The notes: generated by a model not told the origin, from the letters alone. A DNA stretch of 64,000 bases from a virus (IMGVR_UViG_3300016665_000824:64001-128000); one strand, 5' to 3'. Counted from the first letter of the stretch, positions 17,596 through 63,638 are shown. Numbers and translations: made by a program.

Positions 17596-18051
17596 ATGTC
17601 TAACTCTAGTTCTGCCACAAAATTGGCGATCGCAAGATTAAAAGGATCTGACCTGCCTATTTTTGTTCCAGTTTCAGTCTCTGAGAAAGTCGCAACCCTA
17701 GTCAGGGAGTGTATTTTACAGTCCGACAGTTTAAAGATATTAAAAGTTACTACTACAGTTTACAACGAGCTTACTAAGCATTTAAAGCAGTACGAAAAGC
17801 CAAAATATACCATTCCTCAGTATCTTTTGATGCTCCTATATACGGTTTCTACTACTTCAGAATTGATCGAAAAACACAACAAGGGTTTAATTTCAGATGA
17901 CGAGTTTATTAACTGTATCAAAAACAACAAAAACGCAAACGGGACTAAAACCTCCCGCAAAATGGGTCGGAAGAAAGCAAGCGTTGATGCCAGCGATCGC
18001 GCAGTACTTCCCCGCGAGGTTCACAAAAGAACCAGTTCCAAGGTTTCTTGA
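17596..18051 (+). CDS. hypothetical protein (3-prime end overlaps methyltransferase start; true end uncertain)
   Basis: 151 aa ORF. Confidence 0.35.
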   Translation: MSNSSSATKLAIARLKGSDLPIFVPVSVSEKVATLVRECILQSDSLKILKVTTTVYNELTKHLKQYEKPKYTIPQYLLMLLYTVSTTSELIEKHNKGLISDDEFINCIKNNKNANGTKTSRKMGRKKASVDASDRAVLPREVHKRTSSKVS

Positions 18052-18814
18052 TTTCAAAAAGGGTGTCGGCAATTTCCACGACCCTTTCGTTGGTACTGGT
18101 AGTGCATTTTTGTATTTTGCGGATGGATTTCGAGGCGATCGCAAGATTTTTATTAGTGACAGTAATCCTGAACTCATTAATATTTGGCTGTGCATTCAAG
18201 CCGATCCTCTAAGGCTTTTAAGATCCTTGCTTGAATACAAGCGCCCTGTATTTAACAGCGCCGAATCGTACTATCACGAAAGGCAGATCTTCAATCAGCA
18301 GTTTAAAGGTTCTTACGACTACGAGCTAGCAGCAAGAATGATCTACTTAATTCAGGCTGGTTTCAATAGCCTATGGAGGGTTAACAGCGACGGTGAAATG
18401 AACACGCCTTTTGGCTCTCAGAAGCAAATTGCCCTTCTTACCGAGAATGATTTGACCGCGCTTTCGGTTCTCCTTCAAAAAGCGACAATCAAACATCAGC
18501 CTTTTGAAGAGTCGCTAAAAGATGTACAACCCAATGATGTCGTCTATCTCGACCCGCCATACATTGAAGTCAAAAAGAATTCCTTCAATAAATACACCAC
18601 AAAAGGTTTTAGCAGAGAGCAGCAGATACTCCTCCGCCAAGAAGCCGATCGCCTGCACGATCTAGGCGCTTATGTATACGCCAGTAATAGCGATACCCCC
18701 TTGAGTCGCGAAATTTGGTCGGGCTGGAAAATCGCAGAACTGACGAGATCGGGCTGCATGAACTCAGATGCAACCAAGCGTCAACGGGTTGGAGAGTTGT
18801 TATTTTATAAATAA
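17897..18814 (+). CDS. dam: DNA N6-adenine methyltransferase, Dam/D12 class
   Basis: KWVGRK near N-terminus, FVGTGS AdoMet-binding-like motif, DPPY catalytic motif. Confidence 0.7.
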   Translation: MTSLLTVSKTTKTQTGLKPPAKWVGRKQALMPAIAQYFPARFTKEPVPRFLDFKKGVGNFHDPFVGTGSAFLYFADGFRGDRKIFISDSNPELINIWLCIQADPLRLLRSLLEYKRPVFNSAESYYHERQIFNQQFKGSYDYELAARMIYLIQAGFNSLWRVNSDGEMNTPFGSQKQIALLTENDLTALSVLLQKATIKHQPFEESLKDVQPNDVVYLDPPYIEVKKNSFNKYTTKGFSREQQILLRQEADRLHDLGAYVYASNSDTPLSREIWSGWKIAELTRSGCMNSDATKRQRVGELLFYK

Positions 18815-18914
18815 AAAAAGCCAGTCGCGGGACTGGCTACAGGTAAAACAACAAAAGACAACTAAGCGGAAATCAACATATACCGAGCATTTGTGGAGAA
18901 CAGCTCAGGCACTT

Positions 18915-19418
18915 ATGGATATTAGCACAGAATTAAAACAAATCACTGTGAGATCGATGCGAGGAGGCAGCTTTTCGTTCGGTCCTCACGATATTCGAGT
19001 CGATCGCGGGTCGATCTTAGGCAATCCCTACGAGATGGCGAAAGATGAATCCAATCGCGATCGCGTATGCCTTGCCTACAAGCACTGGCTATTTGCAAAT
19101 ATTCGGTACTGGCTGGACATGAAAGAAAAAGGCATTGCAAAGGCTCTCTGGTGGCATATCGATCCAAAGAGCATAGCGATCGCCTCGGATTTAAGAATTG
19201 CTCCGTCGTGGAAGCAGTTCACTGTTGCTCAGGTGGAGAGTGAATTTACTCGCCTCTGCTATGAAGCAACCCAGCACGATATCAACCTCATTTGCTGGTG
19301 CTTTCCAAAAGCTTGCCATGCGGATGTACTGCGAGCAGCCTTGATCTGGTACTACGAGGAGCATTACTTAAAGGAGTGCTCACGGATTGAAACGACTATT
19401 AAAGAATTTTTTAGGTAA
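18915..19418 (+). CDS. DUF4326-like protein
   Basis: GNPY...CWCFPKACHADVL pattern; start placed at internal ATG 18915 to avoid overlap with the methyltransferase. Confidence 0.35.
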   Translation: MDISTELKQITVRSMRGGSFSFGPHDIRVDRGSILGNPYEMAKDESNRDRVCLAYKHWLFANIRYWLDMKEKGIAKALWWHIDPKSIAIASDLRIAPSWKQFTVAQVESEFTRLCYEATQHDINLICWCFPKACHADVLRAALIWYYEEHYLKECSRIETTIKEFFR

Positions 19419-25102: not shown

Positions 25103-25466
25103 TTTTTAATCCGCAACGTAATTTTGTTGTGCTATTGTTGTAATCACCAAAGAAGCAAATGAGAGACCCACCTGCTAAAAATAAGCAAAAAATAAAAGAG
25201 CCAACCGCCAAGTCGCTCTTTCATTCTTTGAAAATGATTGTTTGTTTCACTTCAGTTTCGGTTGTTCCTTCCACCTCGTCGTTTACACGCCTTGGCTGTT
25301 TGTGTTCAACACGACACTAATTTCCTGAATACTCTAACACATGGCGATCGCTTTGTGAAGGGGAATTTACGGAATTGGTGAAAAAACTGGAAGACAAGTG
25401 GTTTCTTGGGAATCTCAAGAACGCTTTGGTTGTTTTTTACACTTTAGTTTCGTAGGAAATTTAGTT

Positions 25467-25997
25467 ATGCTCTCAAGCGAAGAATACATACGCGACAGAC
25501 AAGACTTCGGTTGCTGGGAAGCCCGTATATTTTACTCCCCAGAATTAGATGCCGTTGTTGCGGCAGGTTTTATGGATGGGTTGATCTTCAACAAGGAAGA
25601 ACTCTTCCAGCTAGGCTCATTACTCCTTGATGCCTCAATTAACGTTTCGGGTAAAGACATCTGCCACCTCAATAATCGGACATCGGCGAGAGGTCGTTCT
25701 GACAAGGATTTTTGGCTACAGCGCAAGAATAGATCTGGACTCGTGTATCTAATCAAGGCGATCGGGACTAACTACTACAAAATTGGTAGAACAAAAGATA
25801 TTGAGACTAGATTAGAGACCCTGCAAAAGTCATCTCCATTCGACCTCTCGCTGATTCTTGCCATAGAAACATCAGACTCTTTGGCTCTAGAGAGGTACTT
25901 CCACGATAAGTACAATGATTGTCGAGTTAGGGGTGAGTGGTTTGAGCTAGATGAGTATGCGATCGCTGAATTTATGAGCTACGAGGAGGTCGCGTGA
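25467..25997 (+). CDS. GIY-YIG / T5orf172-like nuclease domain protein
   Basis: GLVYLI...YYKIGRTKDIETRLETL pattern; start placed at internal ATG 25467. Confidence 0.45.
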   Translation: MLSSEEYIRDRQDFGCWEARIFYSPELDAVVAAGFMDGLIFNKEELFQLGSLLLDASINVSGKDICHLNNRTSARGRSDKDFWLQRKNRSGLVYLIKAIGTNYYKIGRTKDIETRLETLQKSSPFDLSLILAIETSDSLALERYFHDKYNDCRVRGEWFELDEYAIAEFMSYEEVA

Positions 25998-30824: not shown

Positions 30825-31089
30825 CACAGTTGGTTTGATTTTTGGTAAGGAAGATAGCAGGACAGAGCAGGAAATCTCTGAGCTTGCGGAGGTCGTAAAA
30901 GCGGCTGGAATTAAGAGAAACCCTGCCATGTTTGCAAGATTTATTTACACACTCGACAAGACAAAAACCTGTCACCCGTCGATTGACCGTGAAGCCTTTC
31001 TGCTAACACTTCAAGAAGTATGGGAAGAGAAGGGACTCCAAGGACTTTCTCTCGCTGAAGAAATATATCAAAGAGGTTTTACAAGATGA
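30817..31089 (+). CDS. hypothetical protein
   Basis: 90 aa ORF, overlapping starts/stops. Confidence 0.4.
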   Translation: MSDTVGLIFGKEDSRTEQEISELAEVVKAAGIKRNPAMFARFIYTLDKTKTCHPSIDREAFLLTLQEVWEEKGLQGLSLAEEIYQRGFTR

Positions 31090-31823
31090 TTGAAAGGCAA
31101 GTTAAACTGCTGGTTCTAGACAAAGACGGTACACTCGTTCGCCCCAAATCTGGCAATACCTTCGTCCAGCACCCCGAAGATCAGGAGCTAATCGAAGGAG
31201 TGGCTGAAGCTATTCAGAGGTATGTTGCTGATGGATGGCAGTTGGCGATCGCGTCAAATCAGGGTGGATGCGAAGTGCGATGGTGTCACCCCGCCGAATT
31301 ACCTGTAGGTAGTTACTGCAATGTAGATAACATTGCCATCAAGGTTGAATACCTTCAAGACACTGGTGAGTTTATACTCGTAAATGGGCATCACCCACTA
31401 CCAAAAACTAGGTTTGCGAAGTTCCAATACAAGACTCTCGGCATAGCGATCGCAGAGATGCAGTATGCGATGAAGCTGATCGGCATTCAGTATCATGGTC
31501 TATTCTGTCCAGACATGCAAGGGAATGAATGCTACATGACTTCGGACTTTGCTGCTCCGCCATTACACAAGGTTGATAGATACAAACACTTAATAGGCTC
31601 GTTCCGTAAGCCCAGTGGTGGAATGTTGCTAGCATTAAAGCAGCACTTTGAAACACATCTTGATGATGTTGATCGGCTGCTCATGATCGGCGATCGTCCC
31701 GAAGATTTGGGATCGGCTCAAGCCGCAGGATTCGATTTTGTGTGGGCAGAAGACTGGCGAAATAACGAACTAGACAAAGTTCTGCCCTACAGGAGCGAAG
31801 AATGGATCGCTCTGAACTCCTAA
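31086..31823 (+). CDS. HAD-superfamily phosphatase
   Basis: N-terminal VLDKDGTL (DxDGT motif I) and C-terminal MIGDRPEDLGSAQAAG (motif IV-like). Confidence 0.5.
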   Translation: MIERQVKLLVLDKDGTLVRPKSGNTFVQHPEDQELIEGVAEAIQRYVADGWQLAIASNQGGCEVRWCHPAELPVGSYCNVDNIAIKVEYLQDTGEFILVNGHHPLPKTRFAKFQYKTLGIAIAEMQYAMKLIGIQYHGLFCPDMQGNECYMTSDFAAPPLHKVDRYKHLIGSFRKPSGGMLLALKQHFETHLDDVDRLLMIGDRPEDLGSAQAAGFDFVWAEDWRNNELDKVLPYRSEEWIALNS

Positions 31824-34401: not shown

Positions 34402-34627
34402 CCCAGCAGGACATTATCCTAGACAAGATGCGTCGGAAGCAATCGGAATTTGAAGACTACTACGTTTTTAGCACTCACGACATAGTGACCCTATGTGAGG
34501 ACAGTCATCTGGACTGGGACTTGGCTTTTGACCAGCTAATAGCTTTAAACAAGAGGAATCTAGTTGCTATAAATCCGACATATTGCGATCGCACAGGCAA
34601 ATTTATCGGATTGTTGTGGGGTTTAAA

Positions 34628-35572
34628 ATGAGTAAAACCGTAGCCACGATGTATTCTGGCTTTGGCGGAGTTGATCAGGGTTTCGTTTTGGCAGGGTATA
34701 CGCCAGTCTTTGCGATCGATAACAATCCTGATGCAGTAGCGGTTTATATCGAGAATTTTGGCAACCACTGTCTAGAGAAGGACGTTTGTGAGTTTGATTA
34801 TTCAAGAGTTAAAGCAGATCACCTCCATGCTTCTCCAAGCTGCAAAGAGTTTAGTAGCGCCAATCACCGTAGTAGCGAAACCGATCTCGATATTCGATGC
34901 GCCCAAGCTACGGTTAAGGCGATCGCACAGATAAACCCTCAAACATTTTCCCTCGAAAATGTAAAGCAGTACGCTAAGTCTAAGTCTTTTGATTTGATTA
35001 GGCGATCGCTACGAGAAATGGGCTACGCCTGCAACGTAACCGTAGTCAACGCGAAGGATTTCGGTGTATCCCAATCACGAGAAAGGCTAATTCTTCGAGC
35101 ATGGGTTAAATCCCGCAAACGCCCTAGACCTTTGGCGTTGTACAAACAGTGTTTAACAATGGGGTGGCATGACGCGATCGCCGATTTAATCCCCACTCTC
35201 AAACCACAACCATTGAATAATTGGCAGCTAGCCTCTCTTGAGGAGCAGGGTATAGACCCCACCAACCTAACTGCACTGGTTAGCAAAGATGGGTCTCGCA
35301 AGAAAAAAGGCTTTAAAAATACTTTTGCCTTGGTAATCCCCTCGTCCAAGCCTTGCCCAACCCTCAAGGCAATGGGGCATAATCAGCACTGTCAGCAGTA
35401 TTCGATTGTGGTTAACGGTGTTGGTTATCGGATTTCTACCGAGGCGATCGCGAGACTAATGAGCTTTCCCGACTCATTCAAATTCTCAGGAGTGAATTAT
35501 AAAGACTGTATGGGTTTAGGTAATGCAGTACCGCCATTATTGGTAAGAGCGATCGCGGAAAGTTTTGCTTAA
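34628..35572 (+). CDS. DNA (cytosine-5)-methyltransferase
   Basis: Motif I-like MYSGFGG, catalytic PSCKEFSSAN (Pro-Cys), ENV motif; start at internal ATG 34628. Confidence 0.65.
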   Translation: MSKTVATMYSGFGGVDQGFVLAGYTPVFAIDNNPDAVAVYIENFGNHCLEKDVCEFDYSRVKADHLHASPSCKEFSSANHRSSETDLDIRCAQATVKAIAQINPQTFSLENVKQYAKSKSFDLIRRSLREMGYACNVTVVNAKDFGVSQSRERLILRAWVKSRKRPRPLALYKQCLTMGWHDAIADLIPTLKPQPLNNWQLASLEEQGIDPTNLTALVSKDGSRKKKGFKNTFALVIPSSKPCPTLKAMGHNQHCQQYSIVVNGVGYRISTEAIARLMSFPDSFKFSGVNYKDCMGLGNAVPPLLVRAIAESFA

Positions 35573-49671: not shown

Positions 49672-50331
49672 CTAGCCTCCGTAATAGTCAGCACATAAAT
49701 ACTCAAGCGATCGCCCTATTTTAACCGAGTAATTCTCACCCTCGATACTAGCTTCCTGCATCACCTTTTCTAAAGCCGCTCTCACGATCTCCACAGCGTC
49801 CGTAGGAACACTAAAGATCATTCGAGTGAATTCATCACTGGCTTCGGGAGGAGCTTTCTCCTTGGCGGCTTCGAGCATCTTGGCGAGACTTTCCTTTGTG
49901 TGAGGTGTGGGGAGATAAGCGCGATCGCCTAATTTCTTTTCAACCCTTTTGAGGGAAACACTTAGCTTAACTGGATCTTCTTCGCCGTGAGCCTTGGATG
50001 CGGAGGTGTATAACTCGTATTCTTCATCCTGTAAGCCCGTAATGACATTGCAATAGTAGTATTCCAGCCCCTCTAAGTATCTATGTTCGCCATTTACAAT
50101 CTCGTACTCACCCTCAATATGCGGATGGGGGCGAACAACAAGCGGCTCAATTTGGGTAAACATCTTTAAGCTCTCCCCCAAAGCCTTTTGGTGGTGAGGC
50201 TGCAAAACGTTTGAGTTCCAAGAGTTCGGATGTATCTTTGAGGTCTCAATCTTTACATTCCACTCTTTCTGGATTCGTTGCGCGATCGGTAGCGAATAAT
50301 CAATCTTCTTCGTCATCTTCATCCTCTTCAA
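49672..50331 (-). CDS. ParB-like nuclease domain protein
   Basis: EIVNGEHRY resembles the ParB N-terminal GxxR-type motif; weak. Confidence 0.35.
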   Translation of the reverse strand: MKRMKMTKKIDYSLPIAQRIQKEWNVKIETSKIHPNSWNSNVLQPHHQKALGESLKMFTQIEPLVVRPHPHIEGEYEIVNGEHRYLEGLEYYYCNVITGLQDEEYELYTSASKAHGEEDPVKLSVSLKRVEKKLGDRAYLPTPHTKESLAKMLEAAKEKAPPEASDEFTRMIFSVPTDAVEIVRAALEKVMQEASIEGENYSVKIGRSLEYLCADYYGG

Positions 50332-54314: not shown

Positions 54315-55658
54315 TTAAGCCGTTCTTGGAAACAGCACTAGGTTGTCTTTACCGATCGCGAGGATTCTATCAAGAGCTTCCTCCACCGATTCTTCAGTGA
54401 CTTCCGACTTCTCGGAATCAAACCTGAAGCCGTCCAGATGCTTGAGATCTGGCATTAATGCAATCTTGGGTATACCCATTGTGGTTAGCAATACTGGGCG
54501 ATCGCCTTGCTTCTTAGCCATTGCGATCGCATCTCCAAGCATCCCCGCAAGAGATAATCTTTGCTGCTTATTAGGGAATAGTTTTGCATCGGCAAGAGCT
54601 GCTTCAATGGGCCTATAGCCAACATCATTCTTTTCACCCATGCGACCTAGCGCAAGAACTGAGAAGCAGCCTCGCACTGGGTCGCTGAAGCCAATTTGAG
54701 TACAAAGGTGAGTTTGCGCGACAAGAATAAGGCGAACACACATCTCTCTTCCCATAGCAACTATCTGATTGAGCATTCCAAAAAATTCTGCCTCTCTTTT
54801 TGAGGAAGCAATCATGTCTTGTAGTACCCACCACTCGTCAAGGATTAGATATTGAGGGGCAAAGACTGGGCGCTTCCCGCCTTCTCGTAATATCTTTTGT
54901 ACTGCGCGAATCCTATTCTTCATGATCTTAAAGGCGCGGCTAATCTGCTCGGAAGCAGCATCAAGCTGCTCGTCTTGCGTGTCTTGATCTAAGTAGGTGA
55001 CGATGCCATCTTCGCTTTGAAGCCCTAGCCAGTCCGTTGTCTTTGGATCGACAATACCGAATTTAGAAGCGGGGTTGATCTTCTTTATTCGCTGGATAAG
55101 CGCCTTTAGCAAGGTAGACTTACCCGCGCCAGACTTGGTGGCAATCAGTACATGAAGATCTGTGTGAGCCACCTCGCCGATAATATCTCCAGTAAACACT
55201 CCTTTCGAGTACTCGGTAACAGCTATAGGCTCTTCGTCCGTATAAGGCTCGTCATCAAACTGAGGAGGTCTAACTGCTGCTACTGGTTGAGGGCGAGGCG
55301 CGGATGTGCGCTGAACATTGGTATTGCGAATAATTACTGGGGCAGCAACTTGCTGTTGAGCGTGAGGCAGAGCTACTGGAGTCTCCTCGCCTTTGGGTTG
55401 TTCATCTTCAAGGTTGCTTGCCAAGCCGACACCTGACGCGATCGCCATGCCAAGAAAAGCCAAAGTAGCAATAGGATTATTGTAGGAACTGGGCTGAAGT
55501 ACAGCCTGTTGCCCATGATCGTTAACACTTGAGTCTACCCTCCTGTATTCGTCTGCGGACTTAAATAGGACATCTCTCGGTAATACCGACCATCCAGCAG
55601 CTCCTAGCCATGCTGCACAGCTAATGCCTAATAGTAGGTTTACTGTTGACTTCTTCAT
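54315..55658 (-). CDS. FtsK/SpoIIIE-like membrane-anchored P-loop ATPase
   Basis: Walker A IATKSGAGKST, Walker B YLILDEW; N-terminal hydrophobic segment and Pro/Gln-rich linker. Confidence 0.5.
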   Translation of the reverse strand: MKKSTVNLLLGISCAAWLGAAGWSVLPRDVLFKSADEYRRVDSSVNDHGQQAVLQPSSYNNPIATLAFLGMAIASGVGLASNLEDEQPKGEETPVALPHAQQQVAAPVIIRNTNVQRTSAPRPQPVAAVRPPQFDDEPYTDEEPIAVTEYSKGVFTGDIIGEVAHTDLHVLIATKSGAGKSTLLKALIQRIKKINPASKFGIVDPKTTDWLGLQSEDGIVTYLDQDTQDEQLDAASEQISRAFKIMKNRIRAVQKILREGGKRPVFAPQYLILDEWWVLQDMIASSKREAEFFGMLNQIVAMGREMCVRLILVAQTHLCTQIGFSDPVRGCFSVLALGRMGEKNDVGYRPIEAALADAKLFPNKQQRLSLAGMLGDAIAMAKKQGDRPVLLTTMGIPKIALMPDLKHLDGFRFDSEKSEVTEESVEEALDRILAIGKDNLVLFPRTA

Positions 55659-57384: not shown

Positions 57385-57648
57385 ATGAGCGTCACTCAGA
57401 CTGCGCGTTTCCCCGATGATTTACATGCTGCATTGAAAGAACACTGCGATCGCACAGGAAATAGCGCCAACGCAGAAATAATCCTCGCAGTGCGAAAACA
57501 TCTGGGTATGCCAACAGTCGAAGATCGTCTCGATAGTCTTGAAGAGGGATTGAGAAAATGTATTGATAGGTTGAATAGGCTAGAGGCTAGCGCGATCGCC
57601 ACTCAGCAATCTTCCGACACCGATATTCGGTCCAGTGCGGATGATTAG
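57385..57648 (+). CDS. ribbon-helix-helix (CopG/Arc-like) DNA-binding protein
   Basis: N-terminal RFPDDLHAALKEHCDRTG...AEIILAVRKHLG pattern typical of RHH proteins. Confidence 0.4.
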   Translation: MSVTQTARFPDDLHAALKEHCDRTGNSANAEIILAVRKHLGMPTVEDRLDSLEEGLRKCIDRLNRLEASAIATQQSSDTDIRSSADD

Positions 57649-57934
57649 TCGGCGTGTACCAATTTTCATATTTGTAAGTACCCTTTGACCTGTTGCAAGG
57701 CGTACAAGCTGGTACGGTATTTGCAAAGTCGTCGCTACCCGAATCATGGCGCGGAATGATATGGTCTAGTCCGTTTGCCTCGTTACCGCAGTAGGCACAT
57801 TTATAGTCAAACTCTTGGAACGTATAATCTCTAATCTTTTGCAAAACATCTTTTTTCCTAATGCAGTCAGATAGGGATATATAGAGCATATTCAATACCC
57901 ATGTTTTGACAATGCTGCCACAAAATTGAAACAA
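57587..57934 (-). CDS. HNH endonuclease
   Basis: CAYCG...DHIIP...N...CTPCNRSKG HNH motif. Confidence 0.65.
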   Translation of the reverse strand: MFQFCGSIVKTWVLNMLYISLSDCIRKKDVLQKIRDYTFQEFDYKCAYCGNEANGLDHIIPRHDSGSDDFANTVPACTPCNRSKGTYKYENWYTPTNHPHWTEYRCRKIAEWRSR

Positions 57935-58005: not shown

Positions 58006-58212
58006 ATGCTTAAGTACAAACAAGCTGAAGTGGCGATCGCTCCCAACGGTTCGTGCGAAATTCTTTGGGGAAATAACCACCCCACAATGGCTGGAATGAA
58101 GCAAGATGTACATCTGCCTGAAGAGATCAAGGGCCACCTTGTTGCAGTAAATCAGTACGTCAGTCAGTACATTGATATCGTGACGGAGCCAGCAGATGTC
58201 TTGGACTTATAG
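58006..58212 (+). CDS. hypothetical small protein
   Basis: 68 aa ORF. Confidence 0.3.
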   Translation: MLKYKQAEVAIAPNGSCEILWGNNHPTMAGMKQDVHLPEEIKGHLVAVNQYVSQYIDIVTEPADVLDL

Positions 58213-58441
58213 AGTCTGCCGTGATTTTGAACCTAATGGGGAAGAGTTCCTCAGTATTCGCGAATGCTGGGTTAGAGAGGGCGCTTCCCCTCCCTATAAA
58301 GACGAGGACTATACTTCTTGGTCTGCCGAGCCTATTTCTGTGGTCGGAGATAATCTTGAAGAGCTGGCATGGAAGCTAGAGAAGATGGCGATCGCTCTGA
58401 AGAAAAACATTCTTGATATACCACGCGATCGCCCTGAGTAA
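58196..58441 (+). CDS. hypothetical small protein
   Basis: 81 aa ORF. Confidence 0.3.
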   Translation: MSWTYRVCRDFEPNGEEFLSIRECWVREGASPPYKDEDYTSWSAEPISVVGDNLEELAWKLEKMAIALKKNILDIPRDRPE

Positions 58442-58545
58442 ATGCACAAGAAATCCCGAAATCGTGTGCATGTTTATTCAATATACACAAGCAACCCGCC
58501 AAGCCTCTCTACGATGCTGAAACTGGCGGGTTGCTTGTGTTGTGA

Positions 58546-58929
58546 TTATACCTGAGTGGCGAAGTATTTAGAGGCGATCGCGATAAGCCTTAATTGTTCG
58601 CTGGGATAAATCCCTGAAGGTCCAACTGCCTCATATAGTCTCTTTAGCACCTCAGCTTTGCCGTACTCGGAAATCAGTAAAGCCCATCCAAGTACATGTA
58701 GCTGGAACAAAAGCTCTTTCTGGAGCCGTTCCTTATGAGCTGTACTCTTACCCTTAAACGTCGGATGTCGAACCTCTCGTACTCGCAGCTTGTTTTTCGG
58801 GAAGGAAATGTAGAGACTTGAGGTTAGGTATTCATCTATCAGAACGAGAAGTTCTTGGCGATCTTTTTGTAAGAGTTCTGCTTGCATAGACATACTCAAA
58901 AACCTTTGTATTTCTGCCAAGAAGTCCAA
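58546..58929 (-). CDS. hypothetical protein (last gene of 8-gene operon)
   Basis: 127 aa ORF. Confidence 0.4.
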   Translation of the reverse strand: MDFLAEIQRFLSMSMQAELLQKDRQELLVLIDEYLTSSLYISFPKNKLRVREVRHPTFKGKSTAHKERLQKELLFQLHVLGWALLISEYGKAEVLKRLYEAVGPSGIYPSEQLRLIAIASKYFATQV

Positions 58930-59486
58930 AGGTTTTTTACTTCAATACCCTTTTTCTTGGCATATTTCACACAGTTAGCCGTACCACCTCTCGACCCGTC
59001 CCATAGTGCGAGCATTCTGTTAGCCCGATCGCACATCCACTCATTCCTAATCTGCATCGCCGCAGCCGAGTATGGCACATCAGGGCAATGCACGGCGATC
59101 GCCTTGTCGCAGATATACTGCCATTGGTCTTGCTGCGACTGACTCCACTTAAATGAGTGGTTTAAGCAAGGTACTGCGGCGACGAGAGGTATTTCTAATT
59201 CGATCGCTGCTAATGCGATCGCGGTGTCCCATCCCAAAGCCATGCCAGAAATAACAATTACAGGTCTTTCTTGCATCAAGGCATTCTTAGCAAGGGTAGT
59301 AAGTCTGGGCAGGGTTAAGGATTCGTATTGACTCCACGTACTTTGCAGCTTCTGGGGGCGATGTCCTGTGCCAGCAACGACTAATTGCCCGTCGGTAAGA
59401 TCGAGTTTAATGTCGGAGGAGTCTGATTCGCTACCTATAGGAATATTAACTTGGAGCCAGTGATCGGTGATTGATATTGTTTTCAT
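58896..59486 (-). CDS. SLOG-fold protein, DUF1273/YpsA-like
   Basis: VVAGTGHRPQKL near N-terminus resembles the YpsA ITGYKP motif; Rossmann-like alternation. Confidence 0.4.
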   Translation of the reverse strand: MKTISITDHWLQVNIPIGSESDSSDIKLDLTDGQLVVAGTGHRPQKLQSTWSQYESLTLPRLTTLAKNALMQERPVIVISGMALGWDTAIALAAIELEIPLVAAVPCLNHSFKWSQSQQDQWQYICDKAIAVHCPDVPYSAAAMQIRNEWMCDRANRMLALWDGSRGGTANCVKYAKKKGIEVKNLWTSWQKYKGF

Positions 59487-59761
59487 TCTAAAATCCCTGC
59501 GCTTACTAGGTCTGGTTTTAGATCTCTGACGGCTTCGCTCATGGTTTTTACGATTTTATTTCGTTTCACCAAGAGGGATCTAATCTCGCCTGCTTTGGTT
59601 GTTGAGTCGTATAGAGCGAACCTCCCCCCTTGCAAGAGTTCGTCAGCGATCGCTTCAAATTCTGCGGACAAAACCCTGAAGTCCTCAGCTAAAAGCTTTG
59701 CCTCGGCAACAGCTTCTAGAAACTCGTCAAGTCTCTCAAGCCTCCAGTCTTTTTGTGTCAT
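59483..59761 (-). CDS. hypothetical protein
   Basis: 92 aa ORF, 4-nt overlaps both sides. Confidence 0.4.
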   Translation of the reverse strand: MTQKDWRLERLDEFLEAVAEAKLLAEDFRVLSAEFEAIADELLQGGRFALYDSTTKAGEIRSLLVKRNKIVKTMSEAVRDLKPDLVSAGILE

Positions 59762-60132
59762 TGCTTCTTAAAACCTTCAAAAGGGATATAAGGCTCTTGC
59801 TCCATCCACTGCTTAAGGCGATCGCGGGCAAAAGCTTCTCGATATTGCGGTGGAACAAGACTAACTTCCTGTGCTGCTGCTTCGTACTTGTCTAACTCGG
59901 CGATCGCATCATCAGCCGACATTCTCCCAAACAGTACTTCCTGATTAAGTAACGCATACTGAAGTTCGTACATTAATTCAGGATCTGTGGGCGTATATTC
60001 GGGAACAAGCTTGGACAGGTCTTCAATCGCACTGCACCAGTGTTGGTCGCTGGAGCAAGGTGCATCATCGGCTTTGACTCGTGACCATAACAAGTTGACA
60101 AGGATTAATTCGAGTTGTTTAGGATCTGCCAT
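59758..60132 (-). CDS. hypothetical protein
   Basis: 124 aa ORF. Confidence 0.4.
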   Translation of the reverse strand: MADPKQLELILVNLLWSRVKADDAPCSSDQHWCSAIEDLSKLVPEYTPTDPELMYELQYALLNQEVLFGRMSADDAIAELDKYEAAAQEVSLVPPQYREAFARDRLKQWMEQEPYIPFEGFKKQ

Positions 60133-60598
60133 GTGGGTAATACGAAAAACTATTGGGGAATATAGAACCTATTAGCAAGGAAATACCTGTATCGACGTAG
60201 TTGCAAATAGCAAATACTTCTTTCTTATTTAGGTCTAAGAATGGCAAGTCTTCCTTGAGAAACGCCTCAATACGCTTGGTAAAGATTACGCAGTTATCGG
60301 GGCAAAAACGCTCAATATTGCCTGCGTCTACTGCTATATATCTTTTATGGTCGGCAAAGAAGAAGCTTTGGGCGTTATAAGCGCTACCAAAGTCAATAAC
60401 CGTCCAGTGCGTCGGGATTATCTTGGATAAGTAGTAGTAAGTATCGACAAACCCAAGAAAGCTTGGTTCGATATCGACGTATTCTTGGTTGAACACGCGA
60501 TCGCCCTGCTCTTTAGGCAGCAAAGCCAACAGTTTGGCATTGATCGATTCAGCTTCTTGCCAGCGAAGGGCATTGTCATTAGGTATTATCATCGTCAT
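60119..60598 (-). CDS. hypothetical protein (start at internal ATG 60598)
   Basis: VIDFGSAYN segment is loosely Rossmann-like; not assignable. Confidence 0.35.
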   Translation of the reverse strand: MTMIIPNDNALRWQEAESINAKLLALLPKEQGDRVFNQEYVDIEPSFLGFVDTYYYLSKIIPTHWTVIDFGSAYNAQSFFFADHKRYIAVDAGNIERFCPDNCVIFTKRIEAFLKEDLPFLDLNKKEVFAICNYVDTGISLLIGSIFPNSFSYYPHGRS

Positions 60599-60818
60599 AC
60601 TCCTCACGATCGCGTGCTTCTTGTTCTTGGTAGCCACCAAAAGTCAGCAACATCCCACGGATTACGGACAGATTAACTTCATTGGATGAATACTTTTTAG
60701 TCGGGAGGGATTCTTCTAAGTGATCAAGGGTGTCCCGAACCCTGTAAATTAGCCGCAGCCACTCAGGAATTTCTAGAATTATTGCTGACGCGATCGCGTA
60801 AAGGACTATTAGGTTCAT
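60579..60818 (-). CDS. hypothetical small protein
   Basis: 79 aa; start directly follows upstream stop. Confidence 0.3.
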   Translation of the reverse strand: MNLIVLYAIASAIILEIPEWLRLIYRVRDTLDHLEESLPTKKYSSNEVNLSVIRGMLLTFGGYQEQEARDREEYDDDNT

Positions 60819-61238
60819 TTACAGAAGCTCCTTAGAGAAGAAAGTTGTTTCTTTAGCCACGTCGATATCGACAGGATGAAGACCAACCGCCAACGACTCT
60901 AAAGCCTCACTCGCGTTACTAGGATCTACTACCCACGTTTTTGCGTCAACTTCGGGCACTTGAGACCAGTATCTTTGCAACCACTTTAACCAGCCGTTGC
61001 GAGAAAACGGTTTAGGCGGATCGATTGCCGCCAATTTTTCAACAGCTTCTTTTACAAGGATCGCATCCTCTTCTAGGCTTGCTGAGTCAATCCAGAAACC
61101 GCATTTTTTGCAGTAAACAATATAGTTGCCACTGCGCTTTGAGATCTGAATCCCCAAAGAAATGGTCTTGCGAGCAAATCCTTGACTAACTTTTCCGTAG
61201 TTAGGATCGATCGCTTTCCGTCTTTTAGCTTCACCCAT
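60819..61238 (-). CDS. hypothetical protein with CxxC pair
   Basis: 139 aa; YCKKCGF motif. Confidence 0.4.
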   Translation of the reverse strand: MGEAKRRKAIDPNYGKVSQGFARKTISLGIQISKRSGNYIVYCKKCGFWIDSASLEEDAILVKEAVEKLAAIDPPKPFSRNGWLKWLQRYWSQVPEVDAKTWVVDPSNASEALESLAVGLHPVDIDVAKETTFFSKELL

Positions 61239-61488
61239 TAAATTTCTCCCTTGATGTTAATTCGTATAGTCCCATCTCTTCAGTTATCCTAACCAACTCA
61301 CTCAAAGCGTCCATCCTCGCAACCTTCTCCTTGGCTCGCTCAACTTCTTCAAGCATTTCACCATAGGCGAATGGTTCGTATTGCTCAATCGCCTTTGCGA
61401 GGCGATCGCGATCTAATTCATCCAAGGCAGACTTAAATTTGAGATAGGCGATCGCCTCGTTTAGATTGCTTGGTAGTTGGGTTCTCAT
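61231..61488 (-). CDS. hypothetical small helical protein (first gene of operon)
   Basis: 85 aa ORF. Confidence 0.4.
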   Translation of the reverse strand: MRTQLPSNLNEAIAYLKFKSALDELDRDRLAKAIEQYEPFAYGEMLEEVERAKEKVARMDALSELVRITEEMGLYELTSREKFNG

Positions 61489-61591
61489 TGCGATACCACT
61501 TATTTATTATTAAAAAATACATAGAAGAAATGCGGCAATTCATATTAAATGAATTACGCTCAACTCCTGAAAAGTGCAAGATATTTCGTAG

Positions 61592-62683
61592 TTAATTATG
61601 TGTTAAGGGGGTTATCTTGGAGGTTTTAGCACCCTCCTCAGAAAGCCTTGCTAGGTAAGCAGACACCCGCCGTCGCAAACTTTTTTTCGACAGTAAATCA
61701 TACTCTTTTTCAAAGATACAGCAAAGTGATTTGTAAAACAAGTTTTTATACTTGAAATAATGAGTATTCACCCTTTCTGCATCAGCAAAATGTCGAGACA
61801 GATAATAGGAATAGTTTACTTCCGCATTGGAGTCTGTTTGACAAATATGTACTCGTCTCAATCTACTGAGAGACCTGCGATCGCGTACTTCTTCGTCAAT
61901 GGCTCGAATCGCATCAAGGATCTCAAGGTCATCGCTAAATGGTTCGGCGGCTTGATGGATCTCTTTTAAGTAGGAGTCCCATCGCCGAGTTAGCGATCGC
62001 TCCTTGAGATGATTTGATATGGTTCGAGCTGTGACTCCCAATGACTTAGCTATTTCTAGCTGAGAAGCGCCATAAGGTACGAAGTTCTCGTTAGTATAAA
62101 TCCTGTCCTTAGATACTGCCTCAACACCCTCAATCCCCATAGAACATAATTCAGAGGCTTGGAGTTTTAGCAAGTCCTTTGCAGGTACTAACCTGAGTTT
62201 TTTCTTTACTTTGCGCTGCTTGTTTTTTTCTTTTTCTGCCAGTCCAGCAGCAAATTTAGAACGAGCTTGTTTTGCAAGTAATTCGGCGCGAGTACAGTGA
62301 TACTTAACTTGAGTGATCTGAATCGGACTTAGTTCGACTATCGACCCAAGTTTGGCAACATCATGTTGTTTGCAGACCTTGCCAATACTTGTGTATCGCA
62401 CCCATGCTCGACCTTCTGGTAGCCACCGATAATCGATAAGCAATCCAGCTTTGTGAGACTCCCTAATCCATTTTTTGAGTGTGTCGGGTTTTACGCCGCA
62501 ATCACTCGCCAAATGACTGATATTGAATTTAACCCAGCCTTTCCCGCGATCGCTTCTAGATGAAAACTGATCTAGCCCACGCACGACATGCCAAATATTT
62601 ACTGCGCCGATCGCATGATTTTTGATCACGGCGTAGAGAATATTTGTGTAAGTTGTGGCAATTATGGGGTAATATAGTTTCAT
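61592..62683 (-). CDS. HTH domain protein (sigma-70 region-4-like / putative regulator)
   Basis: LEIAKSLGVTARTISNHLK helix-turn-helix; 363 aa. Confidence 0.45.
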   Translation of the reverse strand: MKLYYPIIATTYTNILYAVIKNHAIGAVNIWHVVRGLDQFSSRSDRGKGWVKFNISHLASDCGVKPDTLKKWIRESHKAGLLIDYRWLPEGRAWVRYTSIGKVCKQHDVAKLGSIVELSPIQITQVKYHCTRAELLAKQARSKFAAGLAEKEKNKQRKVKKKLRLVPAKDLLKLQASELCSMGIEGVEAVSKDRIYTNENFVPYGASQLEIAKSLGVTARTISNHLKERSLTRRWDSYLKEIHQAAEPFSDDLEILDAIRAIDEEVRDRRSLSRLRRVHICQTDSNAEVNYSYYLSRHFADAERVNTHYFKYKNLFYKSLCCIFEKEYDLLSKKSLRRRVSAYLARLSEEGAKTSKITPLTHN

Positions 62684-62822
62684 CTGAGCGCTACTATCGC
62701 TTGGGTCTGCATCTCATCAGGTTGATTAAGGAATTGAGCCTCCTTAGCCAACTGGCAGTAAAAACAATATAACACAAAACCCCCGCAAACAACTTATTCT
62801 TGTGGGGGTTTTGTTGTAAAAT

Positions 62823-63533
62823 ATGTTTATGCGATCGCGTATCTCACTACCGATCGCTGACCATCCAACCATACTGGACAGTAAAAATATTATGTCATAC
62901 ATAGACAGCCTGAAAGTAACTGCGAAGAAACATGCAATAATACAGGATATTATTTCTAGGTGCTGGAATTACTGTGTTCAACCACCCAAGAGACTCAATT
63001 CTGAGATACTTAACCATCCTGACATCATCAGCCTTATTGACCATAGCTGGGATAGCAGTATTGTTGGGCTAAACGAGTACCAAAAGCTTGTATTTTCCCT
63101 TGTCAGTGAAGGGGTAAGCGTTAGAAGCGAGTACCCTCTTTGTTTTCACGACATCTTTGTTAGGTTTCTATCGGAGATGTGCCCACTAAGCCAAAGGATT
63201 TCGATAGAGGAGAACTCTATCGACGAGATACACTTAAAATTTCCAGCCAAAAGAGGGATTTATTTTTGCTTGCGTACGGTTATTGGCTTTCGCCTTGACG
63301 GTTTTAAAAACGAAGTTTGGTATGTCGGGAAGTCGGGAAATTTTAGAGAGAGGTGGAAAAGTCACCACAAGTTTGAGGCTTTAAAGGCTATCAAGAACGT
63401 TGCAGTGTGTTGGCTGCCCCTCGAAGATTACTCTGATGAGCAGCTAAGCTACGCAGAAGAAGTATATATTTACATGCTTCAACCCGTATTTAATGGCACT
63501 TCCAAGCCTGAAAGGTGTCTAGTGGTTAACTAA
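62823..63533 (+). CDS. GIY-YIG nuclease domain protein
   Basis: C-terminal RGIYFC...VWYVGKSGNFRERWKSH...E pattern. Confidence 0.4.
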   Translation: MFMRSRISLPIADHPTILDSKNIMSYIDSLKVTAKKHAIIQDIISRCWNYCVQPPKRLNSEILNHPDIISLIDHSWDSSIVGLNEYQKLVFSLVSEGVSVRSEYPLCFHDIFVRFLSEMCPLSQRISIEENSIDEIHLKFPAKRGIYFCLRTVIGFRLDGFKNEVWYVGKSGNFRERWKSHHKFEALKAIKNVAVCWLPLEDYSDEQLSYAEEVYIYMLQPVFNGTSKPERCLVVN

Positions 63534-63548
63534 CAAACAGTCTAATAG

Positions 63549-63590
63549 CCAGACAAAAAAAGATCCGAAACTGGATCTTTTTTTGTCTGG
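63549..63590. terminator. bidirectional intrinsic terminator
   Basis: 18-bp perfect stem CCAGACAAAAAAAGATCC/GGATCTTTTTTTGTCTGG with 6-nt loop between convergent genes. Confidence 0.6.
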
Positions 63591-63638
63591 CTTGGTTTTC
63601 AACAAAAAAGCACCCCGCCTAAACGAGATGCTTTTCAC

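Follow-up and report, generated by a model that had tools for sequence, protein, structure and literature searches.

The 64,000-nucleotide stretch analysed here, which we call the window, is IMGVR_UViG_3300016665_000824:64001-128000, and it derives from a 134-kb metagenomic contig (ENA ERZ27292652 k141_20893). Toward its right end the minus strand carries a block of eight small open reading frames (ORFs), g1 to g8, preceded by the longer gene g0 and followed by a strong hairpin (Table 1). An initial annotation, made from the sequence alone, described the eight ORFs as a tightly overlapping operon downstream of a 363-amino-acid (aa) helix-turn-helix (HTH) protein and proposed them as an undescribed multi-gene system. 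An independent gene call on the source contig returned the same eight minus-strand ORFs, from 61488 down to 58546, with g0 just upstream, so that the gene content of the block agrees with this description.

Elsewhere the window encodes phage genes for a portal, a Mu-F-like protein, DnaG, DnaB, and a beta-clamp, together with ThyX, C5 and N6 DNA methylases, an M23/SLT peptidase, and a ParB-N protein; no tRNA genes were found in its 64 kb. Abundance of the HIP1 octamer is a hallmark of cyanobacterial DNA, and the octamer (GCGATCGC) occurs 185 times in the window versus about 1 time expected, spread evenly and with the block included. The block has 13 sites (3.1 per kb), in line with the mean for the window (2.9 per kb), so that by composition it is not foreign DNA. 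A nucleotide search of the region against isolated phages, in near and distant modes, and against plasmids gave no match.

The genes of the block are closely packed. Five of the seven junctions overlap (4, 4, 14, 14, and 8 nt) and one is an exact abutment, while g7 and g8 are separated by a gap of 2 to 8 nt when ATG starts are used and overlap, by 34 nt, only with a TTG start. The unbroken chain of 4- to 20-nt overlaps first described is therefore present at five junctions (4 to 14 nt) and interrupted at the other two. As a control, a crude gene call of the entire window gave 78 same-strand junctions outside the block, of which 38 overlap or abut and 51 show a gap no larger than 10 nt. Since start/stop overlap is the genome-wide norm, the tight packing is not distinctive of the block. 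Transcription of the array would run leftward and end at the hairpin, starting upstream of g0, at a promoter-like site at 61606-61578, or at both. PADLOC and NCBIfam scans of all ten proteins returned no significant match, and none of the 10 matches the PADLOC partners or effectors ShosT, SIR2, or TIR.

Gene content of the block in related phages

Relatives were fetched via the SLOG protein (g7), g0, g4, and g5, and the block and flanking proteins were then run against every locus with tblastn. Four related phage lineages have the flanking genes m244, m447, p68, p87, HNH, and m89 in common, with differing subsets of the block. All of g0 to g8 are present in the window. Loci L027-29 carry g0, g1 (in a full-length form), g2, g4, g5, g6, and g7 in this order, without g3 and g8. 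In L037, whose g0 is 86% identical, we find g0, the full-length form of g1, an unrelated 139-aa gene in the place of g2, g6, and a 40%-identical g8; g2, g3, g4, g5, and the SLOG gene are missing. L002, whose SLOG protein is 90% identical, has only g5 and g7, and an unrelated 161-aa ORF takes the place of the GIY-YIG-like gene and g0 to g4. Only g7 is found in L023-26 (SLOG 74% identity), where it adjoins Bro-N/KilA-N genes, and in L030-32 (60% identity), where it adjoins IS605 TnpA/TnpB. When all ORFs lying within 2.5 kb of the SLOG gene in 21 representative loci were clustered, no SLOG neighbor family recurred beyond 3 to 4 closely related loci, and in five isolate genomes the SLOG gene stands alone, without other block genes.

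The genes also differ in their individual histories. tblastn matches g1 only to the C-terminal half of 154- to 157-aa proteins (L027 7672-8136 and L037 9183-9656), and the 103-nt gap upstream of g1 encodes nothing like the Cys-rich N-terminal domain (CHW..CCECG..CLxC) of these relatives. g1 is an N-terminally truncated remnant of this Cys-rich (zinc-ribbon-like) protein, the domain having been deleted in this genome. g3 has no homologue in any fetched locus and is unique to this genome; because g2 and g4 abut directly in L027, g3 is an insertion between them. g2 begins with MGEAKRRK, is weakly DUF2839-like with sub-threshold Pfam matches only, and has an orthologue only in L027-29 (68% identity), with no match in viral contigs or isolated phages. 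Orthologues of g5 occur in L002 and L027-29 (68 to 76% identity) and its N-terminal half also in L033-36, with no SLOG gene nearby; isolated phages gave no match. g6 has orthologues in L027-29 and L037 (66 to 70% identity), is absent from L002, and gave no significant match in a family search, and the sole relative of g8, which has no family match, is the 40%-identical stretch in L037. The initial annotation regarded the remaining genes as ORFans; g2, g3, g5, g6, and g8 are ORFans restricted to this lineage. The CxxC pair it reported reduces to one CKKC in g2, rejected as a zinc site since it reads CKKS in the 68%-identical orthologue. Single-sequence PDB searches with g7, g4, g0, and g2 gave chance-level matches only, and scans of viral contigs for g0, g2, and g4 found no close relatives.

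The HTH assignment of g0 holds, with PF13730 (HTH_36) scoring 27.3 bits versus a cut-off of 25. HTH motifs lie at residues ~54-82 and ~205-228, the second of which has many generic HTH matches. A search of 5.8 billion proteins gave only 4 clusters of g0 homologues, none below 72% identity, and among the relatives g0 is present in L027, L029, and L037 and absent from L002. g0 is a lineage-specific double-HTH DNA-binding protein and probably a regulator. A ParA (CbiA) gene and a small RHH-like gene lie just past the right end of the window (L001 2743-3619), a ParB-N protein is encoded within it, and the relative L027 has a resolvase (1177-1749); given these genes, the element may be kept as a phage-plasmid. 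With ParA/RHH and ParB genes nearby, it is conceivable that g0 is a replication initiator, but a repeat search found no iteron-like family of the kind that goes with plasmid-type initiators, only one imperfect inverted repeat.

The region is hypervariable between related phages. Because the distribution of each gene among the relatives and elsewhere is different, the array is built of single-gene cassettes that were gained and lost independently. We conclude, with a probability of roughly 75%, that the block represents accessory genes in a hypervariable array, carried by a cyanobacterial phage or an element resembling a phage-plasmid, and not a multi-component system. Even the closest relatives do not keep the proposed eight-gene unit together, and its gene content breaks up among L027-29, L037, and L002. 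From the suggested defense or counter-defense island, an accessory and possibly counter-defense region of a cyanophage is retained, and the multi-gene system is not.

A single undescribed multi-protein defense or counter-defense system made up of the eight genes, with or without g0, would be in keeping with their packing on one strand (6/7 junctions overlap or abut), with the gene order kept in L027-29, and with the occurrence of a SLOG protein and a nucleotide-cofactor-fold protein within the same array. We consider such a system very improbable, since the subset varies from one of the closest relatives to the next (SLOG is missing from one of them, and another has just g5 and g7), g1 has been truncated to a remnant and g3 is a unique insertion, SLOG and g4 are each found alone beside unrelated neighbors, there is no PADLOC match, and overlaps are the norm in this genome. 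It is also quite unlikely that in this lineage g5-(g6)-g7 function together as a smaller module, with small helical partners regulating or targeting the SLOG protein. g5 and g7 are the only block genes kept together in L002, and the 4-nt overlaps of g5-g6-g7 are retained in the window and in L027-29. However, g6 is absent from L002 and yet present in the SLOG-less L037, the N-terminal domain of g5 occurs in L033-36 away from any SLOG gene, and SLOG homologues (35 to 74% identity) in 26 other loci never adjoin g5 or g6.

Some observations weigh against reading the block as a mosaic array. L027-29 keep seven of its genes in order, which fits whole-genome synteny and leaves room for coupling, for example of g5-g6-g7. 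Further, co-transcription of the block is read from its layout, and a promoter scan found 9 sites versus 11.5 in shuffled sequences, although cyanophage promoters may differ.

The SLOG protein g7 and the methyltransferase-fold protein g4

The GTGHRP-type SLOG signature noticed at the outset is corroborated by motif conservation, profile matching, and predicted fold. Among 38 g7 homologues, TGHRP, SGMALGWD, RN, and DGSxGGTxNC are invariant or nearly so, and the same applies to the GxD/E motif (G85-W86-D87) and the first-loop motif (T40-G41-H42-R43-P44), following the published definition of the GxD/E substrate-binding and first-loop motifs (PMC6459960). The profile of this 38-member family matches YpsA (2NX2) in the PDB at 3.4e-11, ahead of DprA and ShosA. 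Similarly, a Foldseek search of the PDB with the AlphaFold2 (AF2) model of g7 (pLDDT 87.8, core >90) places YpsA 2NX2 at the top (E=1.2e-10, TM 0.72/0.78), followed by ShosA, DprA, MCP, ThsA-SLOG, and LOG. An N-terminal extension of ~34 aa is lineage-specific and has low model confidence. A WD40 identity, taken from a single-sequence PDB search, was rejected as a short 'GQLxxxxTGH' coincidence.

g7 is a standalone SLOG protein of the YpsA/YoqJ clade, a family common in phages. Many of its 552 homologues carry PF06908 and the name 'phage-like protein YoqJ', g7 itself matches phrog_289 at 3e-19, and 191 isolated phage genomes contain homologues annotated as DUF1273, SLOG, or 'GTP-binding domain'. 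Profile searching places g7 in a routine phage family, which goes against the claim of an undescribed system. A scan of isolate genomes found distant homologues only (38 to 42% identity), in Bacillota, Bacteriovoracia, Patescibacteria, and Lachnospiraceae. YoqJ is a recognized prophage member of the family (PMC6459960), and SLOG domains occur in 7% of small, 19% of medium, and 31% of jumbo phages (PMC9503650). The neighbors of g7 are the ORFans g6 and g8, neither with a GpsB/DivIVA match, and because there is no gpsB neighbor we place g7 on the phage YoqJ-like branch and not with 'YpsA proper'. The PADLOC ShosA profile reaches 16.3 bits (E=1e-3) over 36 residues of g7, which is not a Shosta/Thoeris member. 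In L030 (7867-9566), the SLOG gene stands beside an IS605-type TnpA/TnpB pair, which suggests one route of gene movement.

Viral SLOG domains are mostly YpsA-like, typically standalone, and predicted to sense or cleave ADP-ribose (ADPr)-derived immune signals (PMC9503650). The window also encodes a DUF4326 protein, a domain tied to viral SLOG/Macro/NADAR contexts of ADPr processing (PMC9503650) and fused to the g7 homologue P0017 and to the SLOG of Myxococcus phage Mx1. From the published prediction for viral YpsA-like SLOGs and the presence of DUF4326 in the same phage, we infer that g7 may bind or cleave a nucleotide or an ADPr-derived molecule. This assignment is tempered by the fact that the ligand or activity of any YoqJ-type phage SLOG is a prediction.

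Instead of sensing or processing a nucleotide signal, g7 might be a DprA-like mediator that binds single-stranded DNA (ssDNA) and serves a replication/recombination module. In a direct Pfam scan, g7 alone scores 28.2 bits against DprA (PF02481) and 19.2 bits against the YpsA family (PF06908), which falls short of the cut-off of 27.7; the annotation of certain phage homologues reads 'putative ssDNA binding protein', and a primase/helicase adjoins one homologue; and the beta-clamp and ParB genes belong to the leftward run of genes that contains the array. We nevertheless regard a DprA-like role as unlikely. YpsA is favored over DprA by both the family profile (46 versus 32 bits) and the fold (TM 0.72 versus ~0.54), the extra domains of DprA are missing from g7, most homologues at ~50% identity or below carry PF06908, and the fusion to and co-occurrence with DUF4326 points to ADPr chemistry (PMC9503650). 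A YoqJ-type SLOG with a putative nucleotide or ADPr-derived ligand is the reading that we retain.

The loosely Rossmann-like segment recognized earlier belongs to g4 and proves to be part of a predicted methyltransferase fold. The AF2 model of g4 (pLDDT 94.9, pTM 0.88) has five strands versus seven in the canonical methyltransferase fold, and the g4 profile aligns the segment VIDFGCAYNxQ...YIAVD to motifs I-II of 3G5L (E=0.023). Within the family, D67 and G69 are invariant, and D89 is usual, with N in a few members. Homologues of ~150 to 200 aa (P0121-P0327) form 56 clusters in a word-seeded search and 578 representatives at 50% identity in an exhaustive HMMER search. No family entry for g4 was found in Pfam, PHROG, NCBIfam, or PADLOC; curated methyltransferase families gave 0 matches for g4 itself, and 4 of 45 members match Methyltransf_31 below threshold (best E=7e-4). 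None of 50,697 isolated phage records contains a homologue. Homologues do occur in a T4-like phage of 309 kb, a RecT phage of 77 kb, and a further phage of 91 kb, where small unknown genes surround them and no neighbor is common to these phages. According to its model, g4 is a minimal S-adenosylmethionine (SAM)-methyltransferase-fold protein; its family is undescribed and confined so far to metagenomic phages, and g4 may be a non-catalytic SAM binder.

The hairpin beyond g8 as an orphan abiF RNA

The hairpin that follows the block lies 54 nt after the plus-strand ORF p81 and 5 nt past the stop codon of the opposite-strand g8. Its plus strand matches abiF RNA (RF03085), the only Rfam family above its gathering score in the 64-kb window (46.9 bits versus 37). 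The match is full-length (model 1-37/37; E=1.7e-5 for the entire window), with 33 of 37 positions equal to the consensus, the unpaired AAGCCUCUC-ACGAUGCU-AAA segments included, and the four non-consensus positions also vary in other instances of the motif. The hairpin folds with -37.7 kcal/mol (z=-8.2), both strands giving values near -37 kcal/mol and z near -8, and in the plus-strand fold P1, P2, and the 3' bulge are recovered within an outer extension of 10 bp. The minus strand has no U-tract. The strong bidirectional terminator of the initial annotation is thus borne out as a strong hairpin, while its minus-strand side lacks the U-tract and its plus strand is an abiF RNA motif.

abiF RNA is the antitoxin of the AbiF (Abi_2, HEPN) toxin and acts in cis and in trans by direct binding (PMC12373285). 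Binding or neutralization of AbiF by RNA has been shown for RCd22/AbiFCd and PbAbiF (PMC12373285, PMC12737573), and AbiF with its noncoding RNA is regarded as the ancestor of Cas13 (PMC12737573). No plus-strand ORF longer than 86 aa lies downstream of the motif for 4.3 kb, no scanned ORF of at least 190 aa in the window matches Abi_2 (PF07751), and a hidden Markov model (HMM) of AbiF found nothing in the window or in L001. Block proteins were considered as a hidden AbiF and rejected, with no Abi_2 or HEPN matches. The motif is absent from the relatives L002, L027, L029, and L037, and together with the unique gene p81 and g8 it is a lineage-specific insertion. A promoter-like site lies at 57800-57828 on the plus strand (10/12 match), and a transcript of p68 and p81 would continue into the motif.

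Scanning for the exact pattern of the loop gave 17 viral contigs (L049-L065), all confirmed by the covariance model at 45 to 62 bits, and at least 80 loci in bulk metagenome contigs (L066-L145); the latter are dominated by gut and rumen samples, and their counts here cover the matches listed only. AbiF was detected with an HMM grown from a single seed, L062, which is also the positive control and contains a motif, Abi_2 (Pfam 6.7e-47), and then a second motif. Among the viral contigs, AbiF lies downstream only in L062 and in L065 (in L065 by the AbiF HMM only), and the others have RtcB, an AAA-ATPase/PDDEXK protein, DUF7841, or small ORFs beside the motif. In L051, the motif is directly upstream of the RtcB RNA ligase. 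Of the listed bulk metagenome loci, 43 of 68 determinable ones contain AbiF, 33 of these on the same strand downstream, and 25 contain none. AbiF is thus absent from 14/16 viral contigs versus 25/68 listed metagenome loci (Fisher p=4.7e-4), and a tRNA gene lies within 600 nt of the motif in 7/16 versus 1/65 (p=2e-5).

In isolated phages, the motif occurs in 68 records, 54 of them mycobacteriophages of ~110 kb and the others including T7-like Aeromonas phages, the T4-like Acj61, and Synechococcus S-SZBM1/S-CREM1. Four that were inspected (L186-L189; 50 to 58 bits) have no Abi gene within 2 kb, and the T7-like, T4-like, cyano-, and mycobacteriophages with the motif are lytic. Large ORFs 3' of orphan motifs were considered as divergent forms of AbiF and rejected; their sequences identify them as DNA polymerase I, a DNA methylase, lipoproteins, a PLD-like nuclease, and the like. 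In the searchable literature, whose coverage excludes the Cell 2025 AbiF/Cas13 paper, such a phage motif is noted only in the S-CREM1 paper, without a mechanism.

From its sequence and context, the abiF RNA of the window is a putative antitoxin decoy. It would be made as the 3' end of the small plus-strand p68-p81 transcript and would bind and silence a host AbiF HEPN RNase during infection, and its hairpin would also stop convergent transcription. More generally, orphan abiF RNAs may be a phage counter-defense, often expressed from tRNA arrays or transcript ends, that keeps host AbiF HEPN RNases off during infection. The window copy would then belong to a widespread and so far undiscussed class in T7-like, T4-like, cyano-, and mycobacteriophages and many uncultured phages. 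We advance this counter-defense claim, with the class that it implies, as a tentative one whose chances are clearly below even.

A serious rival, which we judge quite possible if somewhat short of an even chance, is that the hairpin is a mere bidirectional terminator or RNA-stabilizing stem whose abiF likeness is the relic of a lost AbiF cassette or reflects a reused hairpin. Its position exactly between convergent genes is consistent with this, as are the many orphan copies elsewhere that stand at gene ends and are followed by U-runs, the 25 listed metagenome copies without AbiF, and the lack of a known AbiF in the host. A stem would suffice for a terminator, yet the matching positions include 17 unpaired ones, and because these agree with the consensus across phages of unrelated taxa, they argue for selection on sequence-specific recognition. 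The enrichment of orphan copies in viral contigs and their clustering with tRNA genes likewise speak against a terminator or relic, as does the missing minus-strand U-tract.

The antitoxin decoy has its own difficulties. It assumes an AbiF in the host of this phage, and none of the 97 fetched motif loci, among the matches listed, is cyanobacterial-looking (HIP1-rich). Orphan copies in bulk metagenomes might themselves be stable terminators or relics, and the counts of AbiF-less loci depend on a one-seed HMM that may miss divergent Abi_2 proteins and on loci that are short fragments of longer contigs. Finally, the window copy diverges slightly, scores lowest in the set, and has an unusual outer stem extension.

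Neighboring features and relation to known systems

The block is flanked by homing-endonuclease-like genes. The free-standing HNH endonuclease named by the initial annotation is confirmed by its Pfam match and is kept in L002, L027, and L037 with 81 to 88% identity. The proposed GIY-YIG gene is present, but its family assignment is sub-threshold; orthologues occupy the same position in L027 and L037 (42 to 47% identity), and L002 has none. An imperfect inverted repeat in the control region that it shares with g0 is a possible operator. The 447-aa protein encoded downstream of the block has no Pfam match, and its orthologue in L027 (12764-14137) has a weak FtsK/SpoIIIE match. A 245-aa protein with a PNK3P (polynucleotide kinase 3'-phosphatase) match at 1e-8 and additional HAD matches is a possible nucleic-acid end-healing enzyme, of interest beside a putative anti-RNase decoy.

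Table 1. Positions of the block, the hairpin, and other features in the window
Feature	Coordinates	Strand	Description
g0	61592-62683	-	363 aa, two HTH motifs
g1	61231-61488	-	85-aa helical protein, truncated remnant
g2	60819-61238	-	139-aa ORFan
g3	60579-60818	-	79-aa ORFan, hydrophobic N-terminus
g4	60119-60592	-	157-aa protein, predicted minimal class-I SAM-methyltransferase fold
g5	59758-60132	-	124-aa helical ORFan
g6	59483-59761	-	92-aa helical ORFan
g7	58896-59486	-	196-aa standalone SLOG protein, YpsA/YoqJ (DUF1273) clade
g8	58546-58887	-	113-aa ORFan, ATG start (TTG-extended form to 58929); last gene of leftward array
Hairpin with abiF RNA motif	58485-58540 (core 58495-58531)	+	Extended hairpin, Rfam RF03085
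p81	58196-58441	+	ORF unique to this genome, no homologue, no Pfam match
p68	58006-58212	+	ORF kept in L002, L027, L037; no Pfam match
HNH endonuclease	57587-57934	-	Free-standing, PF01844 E=7e-11
GIY-YIG-like protein	62823-63533	+	236 aa, divergent from g0; PF01541 18.7 bits vs cut-off 22.6 (sub-threshold)
Inverted repeat	62759-62829		Imperfect, 30 nt, 77% complementary; control region shared by g0 and GIY-YIG-like gene
Perfect 20-bp hairpin	63547-63592		Between convergent GIY-YIG-like gene and 89-aa ORF; terminator-like in both directions
DUF4326 protein	18768-19418	+	216 aa, E=1.6e-13; 40 kb from SLOG gene
D12-class N6-adenine methylase	17897-18814	+	Accessory, anti-restriction/homing type
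T5orf172/MUG113 protein	25398-25997	+	GIY-YIG-related; accessory, anti-restriction/homing type
PNK3P/HAD protein	31086-31823	+	245 aa
C5-cytosine methylase	34583-35572	+	Accessory, anti-restriction/homing type
ParB-N protein	49672-50331
447-aa protein	54315-55658	-	Downstream of block

As first described, the block is nothing unusual: small genes that are tightly packed and rapidly exchanged abound in phage genomes, and YoqJ-type SLOGs are already catalogued. The mosaic reading spares the experimental pursuit of an eight-gene "system". Two findings stand out. One is the orphan abiF RNA as a plausible decoy for AbiF, and the other is the undescribed family of minimal methyltransferase-fold proteins, which deserves attention for its confident model, the lack of a Pfam or PHROG entry, and the lack of a member in isolated phages. 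Were the RNA a true decoy, it would be a second case of RNA-antitoxin mimicry after pseudo-ToxI and would explain, in a simple and testable way, a conserved phage hairpin that annotation at present passes over.

The window copy of abiF RNA/AbiFr (RF03085) shares the stems, loop, and bulge sequence of the family over its full length. It differs in its 10-bp outer stem extension, in its predicted position at the 3' end of a small phage transcript, and in being convergent with another operon. Unlike the type-III-like AbiF toxin-antitoxin system, it has no abiF gene after the RNA or anywhere in the window, and it is single, whereas RCd22 of C. difficile has two copies. Antitoxin halves alone are known from other phages, namely the pseudo-ToxI of Pectobacterium phage PhiTE (PMC3475682), which is likewise an RNA, and the orphan antitoxins of T4-like phages against DarTG (PMC11257639). 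The toxin family here is different (HEPN AbiF, not ToxN or DarT), and the function suggested for the window copy comes from sequence and context.

g7 shares with YpsA of B. subtilis (2NX2) and YoqJ of the SPbeta prophage the predicted fold, a profile-level relationship, the GxD/E motif, and the first-loop T-G-[HY]-[RK]-P, and like most viral SLOGs it is standalone, with ~160 core residues. It differs from YpsA in its genomic neighbors, having no gpsB, and in its ~34-aa N-terminal extension. The cell-division phenotype of YpsA is not expected of g7, as the residues needed for it are unconserved even in YoqJ (PMC6459960).

With class-I SAM methyltransferases (such as COMT 6AW7, KsgA, and small RNA methyltransferases of RlmJ/FtsJ type), the model of g4 shares a Rossmann-like core. 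Strand 1 is followed by a D-x-G-[CS]-[AG] loop that resembles motif I, and strand 2, in most family members, by an acidic residue. It differs in having five strands in 157 aa, the usual strands 6 and 7 being missing, and in an identity of ~10%.

Arrays that vary gene by gene are typical of large phages. The block as a whole resembles the hyperplastic or moron-rich early regions of such phages, which likewise consist of a run of small, packed, mostly ORFan genes with HNH and GIY-YIG-like genes among them and which change one gene at a time. We see no essential difference between these regions and the block, and this is the category that it fits.

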